Shown: positions 11,837-56,138, counted from the stretch's first letter. The stretch: DNA of 64,000 nucleotides from Candidatus Latescibacterota bacterium (GCA_965217585.1 OZ244561.1:2112001-2176000), one strand, 5' to 3'. A program made the numbers and translations. The notes: generated by a model not told the origin, from the sequence alone.

Positions 11837-11878
11837 TATAGTATGTAGCTAGTATATTATAGTATGTAGCTAGTATAT
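11837..11878. repeat. Perfect 21-bp tandem duplication TATAGTATGTAGCTAGTATAT x2
   Basis: Read directly at 11837-11857 and 11858-11878. Confidence 0.92.
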
Positions 11879-41018: not shown

Positions 41019-41849
41019 CTAGGCTTGTTGCGATCTGTTTTCTTCGAGCCAACCGACCGTGAAGTCCACGACGTCTCGTTGTGGCATGAGCTGGCAATCT
41101 GCAAGACCAACCCGGCCGCGGCGGACCGCGTGGCCTGCCTCTGATCGCAGAAAGTCTTCGCCGATGCGATCAAAATCTGAACTATCGATGTCAACATCTT
41201 CAAAGGTAGCCCATCTCCGCGAACCCGACGGAGAGATTGGCGCGCCCTGCTGGATGACGCGTTTGGTTGGAAAAGTCGCCCGATGTTCCGCAAGGTGCAT
41301 GGACGTATTATTTCCATGATCCACACCGAGAAGAAGGACAAAGCCGTGCAGATCGTAAATTCTCGCAAGCGGCGAATGCTCACCCATACCAAAGGCCAAT
41401 GAGTGATTATCGGTGATGCGCGATGCTTGGGGTCCACATGCACAAAACGAGACCTGCGGATGTACGCTGCGGAGAACGTCTCGCTGCTTGCGGAATGTCT
41501 CCGCGATAATGCCCATGGAACGAGTGGGGGTAAGCACTGGATCGTAGGCCGGCATGTTTTCGCGTATTACCGGCCACCACGACTTGGGGACGGGCGGACT
41601 TTCCCATCCGCTCGGTTCAGTCAGGTCGGGCGAGTGGGCGGGCATCACAAGCGTTCCAGCCGAGCCCAAGGCTTCCTGCAGGGCAACGATGACCGCTACA
41701 GCTCCTCCGCACACCCATCCCATTGCACTCAAGGACGAATGCACCAACACGACCATCCCCGGTTTGACGCCAAGCGCACGGAGGTCAGCCTGTAACGATT
41801 TGACTGTGGCGGGGACTTCTGTTTTTTCAACGATCTTATATTCACTCAT
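41019..41849 (-). CDS. AAC(3) family N-acetyltransferase (YokD-like)
   Basis: VHSSLSAMGWVCGG, GTLVMP, RSVHP, NTSMHLAE. Confidence 0.92.
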   Translation of the reverse strand: MSEYKIVEKTEVPATVKSLQADLRALGVKPGMVVLVHSSLSAMGWVCGGAVAVIVALQEALGSAGTLVMPAHSPDLTEPSGWESPPVPKSWWPVIRENMPAYDPVLTPTRSMGIIAETFRKQRDVLRSVHPQVSFCACGPQASRITDNHSLAFGMGEHSPLARIYDLHGFVLLLGVDHGNNTSMHLAEHRATFPTKRVIQQGAPISPSGSRRWATFEDVDIDSSDFDRIGEDFLRSEAGHAVRRGRVGLADCQLMPQRDVVDFTVGWLEENRSQQA

Positions 41850-41871
41850 TTCTTGCCTTCGTATAAAATTT

Positions 41872-42234
41872 TCAAGAGGTGTGAAAGATTTGGCTAGCAA
41901 AGTTTCGGATACACTCCATTGTATCTGGCGGTATGCTAAAATCGTCGCGAATCTGAATGTAGAGTGCCCCTCGATAGTTCATGTCGAAGTACTTTGATGT
42001 GCGAGCGAAAGGTACTTCGAACCCGACAGGCAAGGCGTCATCTGTTCCAGTGGCAACAAGCCACGTATCTCGTCCTGCAAGAGAGCGTCCGATGTCCTTG
42101 CGAATCTGAAGTAGATCCGTGAGCCTGTCGAGTAGGAGCCGAGTATTGCCGTTGTCCCTAGCGGTGCCGAGGACGAACGCTACTTTCTTAGTGTGTTGCA
42201 CTTGTCTTTCGTATGATCGCTTCAATAAAATCAC
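41872..42234 (-). pseudogene. Internally deleted flavodoxin-like NAD(P)H oxidoreductase
   Basis: GTARDNGNT N-terminus joined directly to LTDLL...GRSLAGR; central PxYW segment missing. Confidence 0.65.
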
Positions 42235-42331
42235 CTTTCAAGTAAAGACTGCATGGAGACGGTTGCGAACGAAATCGCAATCCTCAGGACGGGGTTTATC
42301 TTCGATCGAGATCTGCATCATCTTACTTTAC

Positions 42332-43198
42332 TCAAGCGTCGAATGACAGCGACAATCCGTCAAATGCTACTCTGTAGCCATGTGCTGCGGCATACTCGTC
42401 CAGTTCGTCATGCTCTAGGTATCCTTCGTGTGAGATATGAGTCGCGTAAGCTTCCGCGTTGTCCTTGAGAAGACCGCTGCGCCGAAAGCGATCGACGTGG
42501 CCTATTACGTCAACGGATGCCAGATGATCAGGCGGACTAACGTCAAAGCCGATGCCATACGTGTGATCAAGGACGAGCAAATCGAACTGCGTACCTGCAA
42601 ACAGAAGATGCTCCCAGACCTGCTCTGATAGAATCGAGGTATCAGTACCGTAAAATATGGCGTGCTGGCCTTGCTCGATTGAGTAAAGCAGGCACCCCTT
42701 TTCGGTGCCGTGGTTCGCGGGATACCCCGTGAAGCGGTAATCGCCGCCGACTTGAGCCTTGAACGGCTCGACGGTCAGCAGATTGATCTTCAGGGCGCGC
42801 TGTGTGTCTTGAGCGAAAATACTTCCGTACTCGCATCTTCTGCCCAAAACCTCATCAATAGACCTCAGTGCATCGATTGAACCTGCTAGAAGCATTTCCT
42901 GTGCGACGACCGTTGCATATTCCTCGTGTCTTGACATGAGGAACTCTGGATCAAAGTGGTCCGCGTGGGCATGTGTCAATAGGCAGATACTGATGCCAGT
43001 CAGAGAAACGTCGTGAGCGAATGACGCGGTCGCTATGTCTGGACCAATATCCACTAGTAGGTCATCGTTGATTGCGATAGACGACCGCTTGCGGAGGTTC
43101 TTGCCGGCGGCCCGCCTCGCTTCTGAGCACGCCTGACATACGCAGAAGGGTATTGGCATCGACGGCGCGGCTGATGTTCCGAGAAACGTCACTTGCAA
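42332..43198 (-). CDS. MBL-fold metallo-hydrolase (PhnP-like)
   Basis: FLGTSA, PFCVCQAC, THAHADH, THISH. Confidence 0.9.
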   Translation of the reverse strand: MQVTFLGTSAAPSMPIPFCVCQACSEARRAAGKNLRKRSSIAINDDLLVDIGPDIATASFAHDVSLTGISICLLTHAHADHFDPEFLMSRHEEYATVVAQEMLLAGSIDALRSIDEVLGRRCEYGSIFAQDTQRALKINLLTVEPFKAQVGGDYRFTGYPANHGTEKGCLLYSIEQGQHAIFYGTDTSILSEQVWEHLLFAGTQFDLLVLDHTYGIGFDVSPPDHLASVDVIGHVDRFRRSGLLKDNAEAYATHISHEGYLEHDELDEYAAAHGYRVAFDGLSLSFDA

Positions 43199-43201
43199 AG
43201 C

Positions 43202-43963
43202 TTAGTCGGTCTCCGTCGTGGTGCAGAAACAAAGCTGATGTCTAGAGTCCGGCCCAAAGGCGTCTCGGTCCCAGTTCCCGAACTTCTCGTTGATCCTTAT
43301 TCCATTGTACTTTAGCAGGGCATCCAGTTCCTGCGGGAAATACATCCTGAGATTCAGACCGCCAACGATCTCATCAGAGTCCTCTCTGTAGTGCACCATG
43401 CGCGCGATCTGGGTGTCTGCTTCGTACCTATATGACTGCGTCACTTGCACCTCTTGTCCAGTTTCATCGTCTGTGTAGCGAGAGAATGGATACCGTCTGC
43501 TTGGGTCGCGATTGAGGATCTCTAGCCCAGGGACAAAGACGTCCAAAATGAAGTAACCACCCGGAGCGAGATGACGCTGCACGCAGCGAATGCACTCCTC
43601 GAAATCCGCTAGGTCATGCAGATGCCATAGTGCGTTGTATAGTAGCAAGATCGACCCATACTGCCTACCGATGTCAAAGCGGCGTATATCGTCGCGGATC
43701 CATTCGACCTTCACCTGTCTGCCGTCGGCCTTTGACCTAGCAAGGCTAAGCATCGGCTCCGAATAGTCGATCCCAGTGACTTCAAGGCCGTGCTCTGCCA
43801 AGGGGATCGCTATCCGGCCCGTTCCACAGGCCAGCTCAAGGACCCTCTCGCGGGAGGCGAGCTCAGCCAGAAACCAATCTGGAAGTGTAGCATACGCGCC
43901 GTAGTACTGGTCGTATTTGGCTGGGGCCAGATAGTCTGCGTCGATGGATTCTTCTTTTCTCAT
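43202..43963 (-). CDS. Class I SAM-dependent methyltransferase
   Basis: VLELACGTGRI, HLAPGGYFILD, RMYFPQEL. Confidence 0.92.
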   Translation of the reverse strand: MRKEESIDADYLAPAKYDQYYGAYATLPDWFLAELASRERVLELACGTGRIAIPLAEHGLEVTGIDYSEPMLSLARSKADGRQVKVEWIRDDIRRFDIGRQYGSILLLYNALWHLHDLADFEECIRCVQRHLAPGGYFILDVFVPGLEILNRDPSRRYPFSRYTDDETGQEVQVTQSYRYEADTQIARMVHYREDSDEIVGGLNLRMYFPQELDALLKYNGIRINEKFGNWDRDAFGPDSRHQLCFCTTTETD

Positions 43964-44166
43964 TTCAGATATCGTTGTGCCGTTGGGCGCAGTTATGTCC
44001 TACACTTTGCGTGCAACAAGCCGCACAAATGTTAAGTCTTTGTCCTTATCAGCCATCAGAAGATCCAAATCTCCGGATCGTACTTGGAAGCCAATGGAAA
44101 CCGCCCTCGGGAAAGAGGATGCTTCCCGTTTGCCAACACTGAATTCAATGTGTCTCTCCTATGCCG

Positions 44167-44685
44167 TTAGATAGTAGACAAGTCGCGCCGGAAGCGGATT
44201 TGTCGCCCTTCATCTCGGACGCCACCATCGCGGCACCACCCCATGGCCTCGTAGAAAGCGATTCCGTGCTCGTAGCCTTCTACAGTCCACACTATCGCCT
44301 CATCGTAGCCGTCTGCAACCAGATAACGCAAAGCGACAGACATCAACGCCCTGCCAATACCTGTACGCCAGTACGACGGATAGACAGCGATAGTATCAAG
44401 TTCGCCGAGGCGTGCATCCACCGGATCTCGGCTGGGTCCAATACCGACGAACCCTACAGTTGAACCCATACGCTCGGCTACCCACCAACGATGAGGGACA
44501 GGCTGAGCAAGATCGTAGCGCCAGCGTTCAGTAAGGGCTGGCGTCACAGTTCTATTGGCCTGCGATAGCAGTGCGCCAAATCCAGCGTTCCACGAATCGA
44601 TATAAATTCGCGCTACAATCTCGGCGTCAGCGGACGTAGCTGATCGGATCGTTGGTGGTAATTCTCGTGTCTTGTCTGGTCCCAT
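44167..44685 (-). CDS. GNAT N-acetyltransferase
   Basis: IRSAT, WRTGIGRALM, FYEAMGW; stop codon lies inside ATCTAAC. Confidence 0.9.
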   Translation of the reverse strand: MGPDKTRELPPTIRSATSADAEIVARIYIDSWNAGFGALLSQANRTVTPALTERWRYDLAQPVPHRWWVAERMGSTVGFVGIGPSRDPVDARLGELDTIAVYPSYWRTGIGRALMSVALRYLVADGYDEAIVWTVEGYEHGIAFYEAMGWCRDGGVRDEGRQIRFRRDLSTI

Positions 44686-44711
44686 CTGATTGCTATTGGT
44701 GATTCATCCTA

Positions 44712-44775
44712 TGTCAAAGTTTGGCCGGTTTGCTAACCGCGAACCGATTGCCGAGGCCAAGGCGCGAGCAGCGCC
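44712..44775 (-). repeat. Degenerate attC-like site (R' half plus loop)
   Basis: GTTTGGCCGGTTTGCTAACCGCGAACCGATTGC...AAGGCGCGAGCAGCGCC resembles 55267-55318. Confidence 0.55.
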
Positions 44776-44835
44776 GTAGCGCAAAGCGTGTCACGGAATG
44801 ATCAGATGCTCTTCGCGGATTGACCTGACACATTA

Positions 44836-45255
44836 TTAAGTTCGGTGTTGGGAAAATAGCCAGGGCAAAAGTTCGGGTTCCTTATAGGCGCGTAGAAGAT
44901 CGCCGTGAGATGTACCCTCATATTCCGTATACCTGGGATTTCCTCCTGCACTCCTAATCACAGCGATCATATCTCTGGTGTATTTGACCTTCATCACGGG
45001 GTCGCCGTCGACGTGGAAAGCCCAGATCGATTTACCGACCATCCGGTCTGCCCATTCGGTACGCCCCCAGCCCCCTATCGGGACTGCCGCCGCGAAGAGA
45101 TTAGGGACTCGCATGATGAGGTCCCAGACTCCGTGTGCGCCCATCGAATGCCCGATGACATAACAGCGGTCCGGGTCAATGGAGAAACGCCGCTGGAGGA
45201 CGGGGATGAGTTCCAGTATAGCCAGAATCGCGGCAGTCGGCTCGGCAGTGAACAT
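44836..45255 (-). pseudogene. N-terminally truncated alpha/beta hydrolase (COG4099 predicted peptidase)
   Basis: GHSMG nucleophile elbow, AAAVPIGG, WAFH; N-terminal half absent. Confidence 0.7.
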
Positions 45256-45326
45256 AACTATCGATATTCACGCCAGAGAATTCGTTATTCATATGGCATG
45301 CGATAATAGGGTAACTCTCGAATTTC

Positions 45327-45357
45327 CATTAACGTTTTCGCCGTGCCAGAACTGCGA
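45327..45357 (-). repeat. attC-like half site (R' end)
   Basis: CATTAACGTTTTCGCCGTGCCAGAACTGCGA near-identical to 55260-55290. Confidence 0.7.
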
Positions 45358-45396
45358 GGTGCCACCTGTACTGCAACAGGTGGCTGCGAAAAAAGA

Positions 45397-46185
45397 CTAT
45401 TGCCGACGCTTCAGCAGGAATATCATTTCGGGTGCCTCGGGCCCTATTGGTCGCCGATCAAATGATCCGAATTCTCCTACACTCTCAAGACCGGCAGCGC
45501 AGAAAAGCAACTTGAGGTGAGGATACGTATAGAAACTCATCTTCAATGGCTGCACTTCCTCAGACAGAACTTTATCAACTTCACACAAGCGGAAGATAAA
45601 CCTGCCCGAGAAATTCAGATTGATCAGGTCAATCTCGTCCTTTACAAAGTACCGGCGGAACATCCGGTCAGTCCCATCTTGTGCAGGCCACTCCAGGTCC
45701 AAGTATTCTTCGCCGACACCCGATAGAATTTTGTCGAAACTAGGATTGAATACATCAAACGCGAGGATACCGCCATCTGCCAAGTGTCTCCCGGCGTTTT
45801 TCAGGGCCGCTAGTTGATCTTCCGTAGTGTACATATGCTGCATGGGTCTGAACGGAATTACTACCAAGGAAAATTGATCACCCAAATAATGGGTGCGAAA
45901 ATCTCCCTCTATAACTCGTGTTCTCCGTCGTACGCTCCCACGTTCCTTGGCGAGCTTGGTGCGCAAGACCTCCAGCATTGAATGAGAAGCATCTATCCCC
46001 GTGACATCAACACCTTGTCGCGCCAGCGGCAAGGTGATTCTCCCAGTGCCGCAGCCAAACTCGAGGACCGGTCCACCATACTCATTGGCTAGATCGAGAT
46101 AGAAGTCCCTGTCCACCAAATCTTCCTTGACGCTGTATGCCGCGTCGTAATGTTTCGCTCCCGAACCATAGGAATCATCAATCAT
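45397..46185 (-). CDS. Class I SAM-dependent methyltransferase
   Basis: GPVLEFGCGTGRI, HLADGGILAFD. Confidence 0.92.
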   Translation of the reverse strand: MIDDSYGSGAKHYDAAYSVKEDLVDRDFYLDLANEYGGPVLEFGCGTGRITLPLARQGVDVTGIDASHSMLEVLRTKLAKERGSVRRRTRVIEGDFRTHYLGDQFSLVVIPFRPMQHMYTTEDQLAALKNAGRHLADGGILAFDVFNPSFDKILSGVGEEYLDLEWPAQDGTDRMFRRYFVKDEIDLINLNFSGRFIFRLCEVDKVLSEEVQPLKMSFYTYPHLKLLFCAAGLESVGEFGSFDRRPIGPEAPEMIFLLKRRQ

Positions 46186-46395
46186 TGTGAGTTACCTATC
46201 GTCGTATTGTTAGGGTCAATCCATCCTGAATCAACTTGACCAATTTTCGCTATGATCGAGCGCAAATCCGGATCTGAAAACTGATCTGTCTAGTCTTAAT
46301 GAACTACATTATCTCATTGAAGTATTCGATTATCTCACTGGAATTCAAGGCAGGCGCGTTGTGATTCCAGTGTCGACATGGTATTCTGCACTTTC

Positions 46396-46425
46396 GCTTA
46401 GCGTTTCGCCGGTTTGCGAACCGCG
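46396..46425 (-). repeat. Degenerate attC-like half site
   Basis: GCTTAGCGTTTCGCCGGTTTGCGAACCGCG; AAC core appears as AGC. Confidence 0.55.
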
Positions 46426-46429
46426 CGGA

Positions 46430-46792
46430 TCACGCCTTCTTCAGCGACACGAAATACTCCTCGAAGCCCAACTTGTGCCAGAAGCGTTTCCCGCTTGGGT
46501 TAGTCGCCAACACGTCCAACGAAACCTCTCTCCCGAGAAATCGCTCGTCCGCCAAGAGTTGGTAAGCCGCACTGCCTACGCCTTGTCCACGATGGGGCCG
46601 ATCAATGAAGAACTGACGGAGGTAAACGACTTCTTGGTCCGGATAGTAATAATCGCCCTGAAATTTGTAGACCGCGTAGCCTAGTATGACCCCGTTGGGA
46701 TCTATGAACAGGGCTATCTCCCATTCGTCGCCATCCAACCAAGCCTTAAGCCGTTGATGATACTCAACCGGCGAAAAGGGATTTCTGCTCCC
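46430..46792 (-). pseudogene. GNAT acetyltransferase, N-terminally truncated
   Basis: YLRQFFIDRPHRGQGVG, FWHKLGF; 5' end overlaps a NUDIX remnant; boundary approximate. Confidence 0.7.
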
Positions 46793-54682: not shown

Positions 54683-54900
54683 CTACTTGGCCCGTCGCTG
54701 CTTTGCCAACCACTCCCACAGGTCAGGATCGCTGTATGCATTTTGCCACGCCTCCACGTGGCCCCCTTCGGGGTACACAGTAAAGCGGACATTGCCTCCG
54801 GCAGCCTTGAGAGCATCAACCATCTCCTGTGATTGTTTCAACGGCACTGCCTCGTCTTGCGCACCGTGGAAAACCCAGGTCGGGACCTCCTTTCCGCACA
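54683..54900 (-). pseudogene. C-terminal fragment of a COG4099-like peptidase/esterase
   Basis: VPTWVFHGAQDEAVP...FTVYPEGGH...WEWL; 5' boundary approximate. Confidence 0.7.
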
Positions 54901-54952
54901 GCGGGTTGCCGAAGGCCAAGGCGGTGTAGCTGCCGCAGCGCAACACCGAGGT

Positions 54953-55239
54953 GTTAGACGTTGCGCGGTGCTATTTGTCAAATGGTAAATACAGACTGCA
55001 CCGACACCCCAGGGGCTCCAGCATCCGATCTCTGCAAGCCGGTCCTTCGTACTCTCAAAATCCTGTCGCTCAATGTCAATGTCAATGATTGGCTTGGCGG
55101 TCATTCCGGAGATAGATGTGCTACCGACATGCTCGATGCTGCAACATCTTCCTGACAAAACAGAGTCAAAACGGTGTCGCAACTCTTCGAACCATGAAGG
55201 CCAGGTCGGATCATAGTGCTTTACCAAAGTAACTGACAT
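54953..55239 (-). pseudogene. GrpB-family cassette gene, internally deleted
   Basis: YDPTWPSWF, IEHVGSTSISGMTAKPIIDID; bounded by complementary GTTAGACG/CGTCTAAC cores. Confidence 0.8.
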
Positions 55240-55257
55240 GATTCAATTGACCGCGTT

Positions 55258-55344
55258 GCGTCTAACGTTTTCGCCATGCCCGAACCGCGAAGCGGTTGCG
55301 CAAAGGCGCACCAGCACCCAAGCCAGGCACGGGGTGTTATACGC
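55258..55344 (-). repeat. Nearly complete attC-like recombination site
   Basis: Minus: GCGTATAAC ACCCCGTGCC...GGCATGGCGAAAAC GTTAGACGC; inner GTGCC/GGCAT stem; ATG about 20 nt downstream. Confidence 0.75.
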
Positions 55345-55414
55345 CGTATGGTTACTCATGCCGAGCAACCAGTTTCTCCCTCAGTTTGATCGCTGTTTCG
55401 TACGCATCTGCAAG

Positions 55415-55482
55415 AAACCCGAAGCCGCAAGGCGGTTTCTGCGGAGCGAAGCGAAGCCGGGCACGGGCGTGTTAAGCGAAGG
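55415..55482 (-). repeat. attC-like half site (R'' end plus loop)
   Basis: Minus CTTCGCTTAACACGCCCGTGCCCGGCTTCGCTTCGCTCC; GCTTAAC core lies 18 nt after the LLM fragment stop. Confidence 0.65.
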
Positions 55483-55495
55483 TGCACTTTCCTTA

Positions 55496-55702
55496 TCATC
55501 GGAAACGCGGGATGACACAATCGGCAAAGAGCCTCATCGACTGCTCCGCCAACTCATGATCAATGTTGCCCCATTTGAACCAGCATATTACCTCTTCCAC
55601 ATCAAGAATCTCCCTGTGCATTATATGACGCTGTTCAAAATCGGCACCGTACAGAGAAAACTCATAGGGAGACCCGGCTGCCCACATTATTGGCTGAGGC
55701 AC
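55496..55702 (-). pseudogene. LLM-class flavin-dependent oxidoreductase remnant
   Basis: PQPIMWAAGSP and EQSMRLFADCVIPRFR C-terminus; only 68 aa. Confidence 0.55.
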
Positions 55703-55897
55703 ACCCGTTGCCGAGTGGCGATTCGGTCATCATCGTCAGCCGTGCCTTTCGTCAGAATAGCGAATTGGACCACCATTAGAATCAAAGAGTTTGTGTGGAT
55801 AATCGCAACCAATCCCGCGAGGCTGGAATGTTCTACGTAACTCCTTGCGATAACTTGAGATAGCACGATTCTTCTGAGATCTGACGCGCCTAGCACC

Positions 55898-55926
55898 GCC
55901 GAGCAAAACGAGTTGTTAAGCGAAGG
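55898..55926 (-). repeat. attC-like half site (R'' end)
   Basis: TGTTAAGCGAAGG identical to 55470-55482. Confidence 0.6.
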
Positions 55927-56138
55927 AAGAAATGGTACCGCTCCTCCTTTCGCATCGCCTCAACGATACTTATTATGCTAAGTCATAAAGTCATAGGGAG
56001 ATCCGCTCCTTAGGAAATCTCAGCGGATGTTCGTAACGGTGGTCTCCTGAGCATCTGAGGAGTTGAAGTTTAGGCGCAGACTGTAGGGCATCAGGCGACA
56101 AATATCGCTATCGAGTGAGCCATGGGAAGGAGAGCCTT

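Follow-up and report, generated by a model that had tools for sequence, protein, structure and literature searches.

We think it fairly probable that site A, a complete copy at positions 55256-55346 of the window (the whole 64,000-nucleotide stretch of a Candidatus Latescibacterota genome analysed here, OZ244561.1:2112001-2176000), is an attC-type site left in a decayed and integrase-less remnant of an integron-like array, that it belongs to a distinct family of lopsided sites, and that the cognate enzyme of this family is an IntI-like tyrosine recombinase without the insertion specific to IntI. The asymmetry of the sites is real, conserved and non-canonical, and it is not a product of decay. 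The element found in the window is a relic of a new integron variant that is marked by the geometry of its sites, and it is the insertion-less enzyme that we infer to run them.

A decayed cassette remnant in the window

The remnant array spans about 54.93-55.92 kb and consists of site A, three half sites and two truncated genes. It is held within a block of low GC content (54950-56070; about 0.49-0.58 compared with 0.60-0.69 in the flanks, from the composition profile), in which the one complete site and the three half sites keep a single orientation between gene fragments located on the minus strand. Site A was recovered by the two covariance models that we have used: R1, built from six aligned copies of the same genome (101 bits), and R2, for which 67 sites from 21 loci were used and the end helices were the sole structure given (87.5 bits, E 1.4e-17). 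Read on the plus strand, which is the bottom (folding) strand, it carries an R' box, GTCTAAC (55260-55266), that we take as the crossover box because a duplicated cassette in the related genome G032 is bounded inside TAAC. This is followed by an unpaired spacer of five nucleotides, GTTTT (55267-55271; the family consensus from the column counts of the 67 sites is G-T-T-Y-Y), and by the 5' stem arm CGCCATGCCCG (55272-55282), made of a 2-bp mini-helix and a 9-bp core and backed by the covariation of the core stem. The terminal part (55283-55323) is variable. The RNAalifold consensus of six copies, taken together with the sequence, places the mini-hairpins AACCGCGAAGCGGTT and GCGCAAAGGCGC there, and reading the loop directly from the sequence gives CCGCGAAGCGG and GCGCAAAGGCGC. 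In the R2 alignment the site is closed by the 3' stem arm CAGGCACGGGG (55324-55334), a single T (55335) and the R'' box GTTATAC (55336-55342). Three of its 18 modelled pairs are non-standard in this alignment, and site A is therefore slightly decayed.

The other three members of the array, all on the plus strand, are halves. Site B (55396-55481; R2 15.3 bits, E 0.25) keeps the terminal part, a 3' arm CGGGCACGG-G-CG (55458-55469), the T and an R'' box GTTAAGC (55471-55477), and its 5' half is missing. Half site D (54932-54959) has a 3' arm similar to those of G032 (for example, that of the site at 2036651) and an R'' box GTTAGAC (54953-54959). It is fused to a fragment of a hydrolase gene, the C-terminal part of an alpha/beta hydrolase (peptidase S9-like; 54683-54930, minus strand; PF00326, 34 bits, profile positions 143-208 of 213), which abuts it. 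Half site C (55893-55921), a stretch similar to a 3' arm that includes GTTAAGC (55915-55921), resembles the G032 site at 2040181 in its sequence and gave no R2 match at E <= 5. A cassette gene of the GrpB family (54990-55239, minus strand) is truncated, its match to PF04229 (66.9 bits) covering only profile positions 4-69 of 159. It has its start codon 20 nt beyond the R' box of site A, and on either side of its body GTTAGACG in half site D and CGTCTAAC at the 5' end of site A are perfectly complementary. Finally, a short open frame from the ORF list (55496-55726, minus strand), for which no Pfam match was found, ends 18 nt before site B.

An earlier note on this DNA had quoted an inner stem obtained by comparing the copies at 55460 and 55271. 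The arms of this stem do match, but they belong to two different sites: the copy at 55460 is only a half site, and the quoted stem therefore joins the arms of two copies. Along these lines, we discarded the reading of 55258-55482 as one site of about 220 nt, in which the arms at 55272 and 55458 would pair, because the arms of the family all fall within 54-111 nt and site A has a 3' arm of its own. Folding of both strands, which had been proposed as a check, showed the copies of the window to be no better than chance, and significance came only from the comparison of the whole family. The four single-copy folds had z values from -0.08 to -1.67 with respect to shuffles, and the whole stretch of 235 nt had z = -0.32 on the minus strand and -2.05 on the plus strand. 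The minimum-energy fold of the 235 nt on the plus strand pairs arms of site A and site B, a pairing that we read as family likeness and not as joint folding.

A blastn search with the repeat, suggested in the same note, found related pieces elsewhere in the 7.3-Mb genome, and R1 gave 18 matches in it at E <= 1, with clusters at 613.8-619.7 kb, 3275-3320 kb and 4305-4311 kb and some singles. Rfam contains no attC family, and a scan of the region with it returned chance-level matches only. Within the window there are also four weak R2 matches, all on the plus strand (41467-41565, 44712-44799, 45323-45386 and 46392-46509; E 0.07-0.7), and one of them, at 45323, is clearly the 5' half of a site, TAACGTTTTCGCCGTGCC. 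The region 41467-46509 is probably a second and more decayed cassette remnant, located some 9-14 kb from the block of site A. In another part of the window (11837-11878) there is a perfect tandem duplication of a 21-nt AT-rich unit amid GC-rich sequence.

Geometry of the site family

On the minus strand, 1 nt separates AAC from the start of the stem of site A and 5 nt separate the end of the stem from GTT, which bears out the asymmetric stem geometry that had been noticed in the window. This asymmetry is a trait of the intact sites of the family. Read on the bottom strand, which in site A is the plus strand, all the 67 aligned sites (21 loci) show the same direction: the stretch on the AAC side was longer than the one on the GTT side. 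Between AAC and the 9-bp core stem there are five letters in three sites, six in 15 and seven in 49, and between the core stem and GTT there are three letters in 38 sites, four in 26, five in two and six in one. These spacer counts were obtained from the alignment fitted to the model, and the usual lengths of 7 and 3-4 include the 2-bp mini-helix. A model-free check, based on the longest perfect stem, was scorable in seven of the 18 own-genome sites and in 27 of the 45 sites of G032. The difference between the offsets was +2 to +4 in the seven sites of the own genome. In G032 it was +3 in 17 sites, +2 in three and +4 in three (that is, 23 of 27), and 0, -2 or -4 in the remaining four, two of which, by reading, had picked a later GTT. 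Other approaches were set aside. Constrained minimum-energy folds of single sites were too noisy for spacer lengths, for which the perfect-stem scan and the column counts were used, and a heuristic scan of the whole genome for AAC...GTT pairs with a stem gave 94 unspecific matches with no preferred offsets, so that the covariance models were used instead.

The paired cells amount to 86.1% in the 67 sites, compared with 66.8% in shuffles and at most 40.9% when the partners were slid. Compensatory changes are found in all nine pairs of the core stem, with 90.8% of the core cells paired, and the 2-bp mini-helix between spacer and core also covaries (CG 23, GC 8, GU 4, UA 4). An alternative GT/AC mini-helix next to AAC showed no covariation and was discarded. 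As to the sequence, the inverse cores are nearly invariant (T 64, A 65, A 64, C 65 and G 66, T 66, T 62, A 65 of 67), the long-arm spacer shows a conserved G-T-T-Y-Y (G 67, T 51, T 57, Y 63, Y 64 of 67) and the base before GTT is T in 62 of the 67 sites. Where the 2-bp helix meets the core there is a single bulged base, some 3 nt away from the R'' box and, by hand count, at about position 11 from the 3' end of R''; no second conserved bulge was found in the site columns.

These data bear directly on another explanation, namely that the asymmetry seen in the window reflects the decay of an attC that was once canonical and symmetric. The non-standard pairs of site A (3 of 18), the reduction of the three neighbouring sites to halves and the truncation of both neighbouring genes would all be in agreement with it. 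However, the same offsets appear in high-scoring intact sites of G032, of G056 and of other phyla (67 of 67 aligned sites, 23 of the 27 evaluable ones in G032), and the covariation of the core stem also argues against decay. The explanation by decay is therefore contradicted, and we consider it very improbable.

The departure from canonical attC that had been claimed also stands when set against published values. In the available part of Nivina 2016 (PMC5027507), the central spacer of canonical attC is described as unpaired, with 5-6 unconserved bases on each arm, and the extrahelical bases are placed at bottom-strand positions 16, (20) and 23/24, on the L'' arm. In contrast, the family described here has a spacer of 5-7 letters on one side and 3-6 on the other, a long arm conserved as G-T-T-Y-Y and one bulged base near R''. 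Four candidate sites located beside canonical IntI genes (G038, G162 twice and G065) had symmetric offsets (9/9, 8/8, 3/2 and 9/9), although they come from a crude scan of 16 flanking stretches and are too few for a firm contrast.

Cassette behaviour of intact arrays

R1 had matches in 36 of 61 relatives and R2 in 62 of the 151 genomes of the phylum. The relative G032, from the same family as the source, contains on one contig 45 sites that share one strand and extend over about 50 kb (45 of 53 rows were used, leaving out one overlap duplicate, three rows on the opposite strand and four weak rows with E > 0.2). The bodies between these sites are mostly of 400-1100 bp and contain one ORF, and in 38 of the 44 bodies the longest ORF is on the strand opposite to the site model. 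In 25 of 33 cases, the five nucleotides outside the GTT of a site are perfectly complementary to the five outside the AAC of the site that follows, compared with 4 of 38 in the control within the same site and 3 of 31 when site n was compared with site n+2. G032 also contains a duplicated cassette of 822 nt, with both boundaries inside TAAC, that carries the inner part of the site plus the body of one side. On the coding strand this unit reads TTRRRY, gene, site, G, which is the plan of an integron cassette with the crossover at the R' core, and the strand of the model is therefore the bottom strand. It folds better than its complement by 1.54 kcal/mol on average, and is the stabler one in 38 of the 45 sites; for classical sites, the available text of Nivina 2016 (PMC5027507) gives an advantage of the bottom strand of 2.12 kcal/mol.

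A similar picture was obtained outside the phylum. In Desulfitobacterium sp. Sab5, the integrase is followed by 12 sites, the ORFs of all 12 bodies point the same way as the integrase gene, and the flanks that face each other across a body are perfectly complementary in 9 of 11 cases. In the locus L081 (10829-11000), a GTTATCTG box found about 160 nt past the stop codon of the Desulfitobacterium integrase matches the first site's R box (CAGATAAC) when the latter is read as its complement, and judging by this match the first cassette seems to join its docking site there.

The comparison shows that these sites separate single-gene cassettes, the two ends of a cassette being the two halves of one site, and that, like integron sites, they have their crossover point within TAAC, at the 5' side of the bottom strand. 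The earlier note had spoken of a distinct class of recombination site. The family does have a conserved geometry of its own, but the logic of integron cassettes is kept in every respect tested, and we are therefore dealing with a variant of attC rather than with a different kind of site. The same observations weigh on the possibility that the sites take no part in site-specific recombination and are transcription terminators or intergenic palindromes of the REP or MITE kind. They are GC-rich intergenic hairpins downstream of ORFs, and the copies of the window fold no better than shuffles, as such elements might. However, the complementarity of the flanks across cassette bodies, the duplicated unit bounded in the TAAC core, the strict single orientation of the arrays and their fixed relation to a recombinase gene make this possibility hardly credible.

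Recombinases beside the arrays and known systems

No IntI was found in the own genome. Its best match to TIGR02249 (integron integrase) reached 84.3 bits compared with a cut-off of 265, and was found in Xer-like genes whose neighbors, from their translations, we take to be similar to topA and uvrC. No integrase of the insertion-less IntI-like type was found in this genome either. The element of the window is therefore an orphan relic, and, with no enzyme of either kind, nothing links site A to a particular recombinase. Site A is probably inactive in its own genome, unless the enzyme is supplied in trans.

Enzymes do appear beside the intact arrays of relatives. In G032 an integrase gene with one in-frame stop, transcribed divergently, is found about 700 bp from the end of the array, and in G056 an intact integrase gene of 322 codons (its product is referred to here as P0001) is located between three sites and an array of 24 sites, 5.2 kb from the main array. 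The two integrases are nearly alike by eye, and the genomes that host them belong to different families. The best family for P0001 is TIGR02249, with 240.9 bits compared with the cut-off of 265, and the match is split into profile positions 1-178 and 235-315 (the latter assigned by likeness to the G032 row), with positions 179-234 skipped. In IntI the additional domain with the I2 helix has about 35 residues and is located near patch III, and P0001 lacks it. Its best solved relative is IntI4 of Vibrio cholerae (2a3v), and residues 207-226 of P0001 (20 residues) stand opposite residues 176-237 of IntI4 (62 residues). In the alignment, the 83 integrases of this kind all have 32-37 residues in this region, compared with 74 in a true IntI of the same class and 39-43 in the Xer-like proteins of the own genome. 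In a quick IQ-TREE phylogeny, 14 canonical IntI of the phylum formed one clade (SH-aLRT 100) and 78 insertion-less proteins formed a separate one (84). The two clades grouped together and apart from three Xer-like proteins (97), with two stragglers outside. Placing the neighboring enzymes in a phylogeny and looking for the IntI-specific insertion had been proposed from the start, and the enzymes lack the insertion and, by this quick tree, stand in a clade of their own. The suspected non-IntI recombinase is thus partly substantiated: the arrays abut tyrosine recombinases without the insertion of IntI, but the enzyme is the nearest relative of IntI.

Sites are found within about 6 kb of an insertion-less integrase in a divergent arrangement in G032, G056, G140 and G141, and downstream and co-oriented in G137 and at two places in G103. 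A wider sample was provided by 80 loci chosen only by their likeness to P0001 (37-58% identity, many phyla), from the matches listed in 3 of the 64 parts of the collection; no close relative of P0001 was present among these matches (at most 58% identity). In these 80 loci R2 gave 45 matches, spread over 16 loci. With respect to the integrase, all 45 are downstream and on the opposite strand, and there were none in the 589 kb upstream, compared with 280 kb searched downstream. The other 64 loci had no R2 match, and 47 of the 80 have less than 2 kb of sequence downstream. The contigs end within 2 kb after the insertion-less integrase in these 47 of 80 loci (L074-L153) and start within 2 kb before it in 11, a bias that fits with arrays of repeats breaking the assemblies. 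Among the matches listed, at least eight Bacteroidota loci have such sites downstream of the integrase, in agreement with a resemblance to intergenic repeats of Bacteroidota that the earlier note had mentioned; the sole Leptospirales locus listed has 207 bases of sequence downstream of its integrase. Two Flavobacteriaceae loci (L111:11475-14284 and L117:12252-15572) contain, downstream of the integrase, repeated elements of 90-140 nt with AAC...GTT ends and no R2 match, which probably represent a remoter branch of this family of sites.

The pairing of sites and enzyme is one that we infer from adjacency only, and a different assignment deserves consideration. The sites could be ordinary attC served by a canonical IntI, past or present and in cis or in trans, their lopsidedness being a flavour of the lineage, and the insertion-less integrases would then be passengers, for example mobile elements homing to attC. 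Canonical IntI is common in the phylum (over the cut-off in 17 of 168 genomes), with a frameshifted one in the same genus (G015), and every cassette rule of integrons that was tested is obeyed by these sites. G136 contains both a canonical IntI and 23-43 of the sites, 84 kb apart or on other contigs. The integrase of G056 is embedded between sites, and G103 has multiple equal-scoring copies of its integrase. Given these copies and the alike enzymes of G032 and G056 in different families, some of the insertion-less integrases may therefore be passengers of mobile elements. No insertion-less integrase was found at E <= 1e-30 in many of the site-rich genomes, among them G120 (23 matches), G116 (14) and G052 (13).

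Against the assignment to canonical IntI stands, in the first place, the rule of position and strand, which holds for the 45 matches of the 16 loci, from many phyla, among the loci listed. Canonical IntI is absent in four of the five array genomes tested, and present in the Nitrospirae genome. Conversely, the five canonical IntI loci (G137, G136, G103, G162 and G156) have no R2 match within 10 kb; the nearest ones are at 65 kb in G137, 84 kb in G136 and 19 kb in G103, and there is no R2 match genome-wide in G162 and G156. The genomes G038 and G055, with true IntI, had no R1 match, and the four candidate sites seen beside canonical IntI were symmetric. With this evidence, an ordinary attC served by canonical IntI appears rather unlikely.

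Two further observations concern canonical IntI genes. The one of G015 (C156:6-886) is split in two overlapping frames (160.7 and 251.5 bits) by a frameshift, and is located at the very start of a short contig, with the array side beyond the assembly. In G103 (C1:2493564-2495430 and 2158606-2160115) a canonical IntI gene or fragment is followed about 400 bp on by an insertion-less integrase ORF of 314 codons, with three equal-scoring copies, the third at 5719267. This ORF may be a mobile unit that lands beside intI.

The 5' part of the bottom strand of these sites is made of C-NNN-TAAC, the unpaired G-T-T-Y-Y, the 2-bp mini-helix, the 9-bp core and a branched loop, and the 3' part consists of the core again, one bulged base, the 2-bp helix again, a T and GTTA-NNN-G. 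In the explanation that we favour, the site acts as a folded single strand. The predicted cognate enzyme, an IntI-like tyrosine recombinase without the I2 insertion, found beside intact arrays elsewhere and not in the own genome, would bind this folded bottom strand. Register and choice of strand might be provided by the 5-nt bulge and the nearby single-base bulge, in replacement of the extrahelical bases that are read by the I2 helix. The bottom strand would be cut between the A and the C of the R' box, and the product would be resolved by replication, as in integrons.

Bacteroidota, Firmicutes and Archaea are regarded as groups with almost no integrons. We put forward, as a tentative proposal, that the lopsided sites and the insertion-less IntI-like recombinase might constitute a separate, and possibly older, branch of integrons distributed over many phyla, including these three, in which the G-T-T-Y-Y bulge and the single-base bulge would play the role that the extrahelical bases and the I2 helix have in classical integrons. 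If this is true, recombination of folded single strands would not require the I2 helix. Should the insertion-less enzyme run these arrays, integron-like gene capture would be undercounted in whole phyla by current surveys, the origin of integrons would become directly testable and a second structure-specific recombination system would be usable as a tool. The value of the window is that of a relic showing the site geometry as a class marker.

The available part of Escudero 2020 (PMC7790495) presents the gain of the I2 helix as the step that let integron integrases recombine folded single strands. Since this helix is held to be the key to folded-strand recombination, detection tools define integrons by the I2-type additional domain (Cury 2016, PMC4889954, in the portion available). 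The same portion of Cury 2016 (PMC4889954) reports that 50 recombinases located near attC sites lacked the IntI-specific region; just four of them fell between IntI and Xer, none having as many as three sites, and they were judged not to be IntI. According to the sections available, integrons are very rare in Bacteroidetes and Firmicutes (Neron 2022, PMC9024848) and archaeal IntI carry the additional domain (Ghaly 2022, PMC9668308). A literature search that covered mainly freely accessible journals found no description of cassette arrays run by an insertion-less integrase.

The known system closest in plan is that of canonical attC and IntI (class 1 integrons and the repeats of Vibrio cholerae). 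Both share the inverse cores RYYYAAC and GTTRRRY, the imperfect hairpin with a variable terminal structure and inner boxes (L''/L') that are kept as structure, the single site per single-gene cassette, the arrays of one orientation, the cassette ends derived from one site, the crossover in the AAC/GTT core on the R' side and the stabler bottom strand. Besides the site geometry, they differ in that the recombinase beside the arrays of the family lacks the insertion of about 40 residues of IntI. This absence, together with a two-domain tyrosine recombinase, is common to the Xer system (XerC/XerD and archaeal XerA, acting at dif), and P0001 had 215.2 bits with XerA compared with a cut-off of 220. 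However, it had only 184 and 178 bits with XerC and XerD, below its 240.9 on the IntI model; among solved structures IntI4 is its best relative, the quick tree places it with IntI and away from the Xer proteins of the own genome (SH-aLRT 97), and it is found beside arrays of hairpin sites and not beside a single dif site.

The site clusters of the own genome, without an integrase gene, are also similar to CALIN elements (Cury 2016, Neron 2022), which are read as degraded arrays. CALIN are defined by at least two attC sites within 4 kb and no nearby IntI, while the block of the window has one complete site and three halves; the other clusters of the genome have 4-6 R1 matches each. CALIN are set by the model of IntegronFinder, whereas the clusters described here were called with R1 and R2. 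Finally, the 16 listed loci resemble the inverted-integrase integrons of Treponema and other Spirochaetota, in which the integrase likewise points toward the array and is co-oriented with the cassettes. The enzymes of the latter are IntI with the additional domain, as stated in the available part of Ghaly 2022 (PMC9668308), whereas those found here lack it, and G032, G056, G140 and G141 are arranged divergently.
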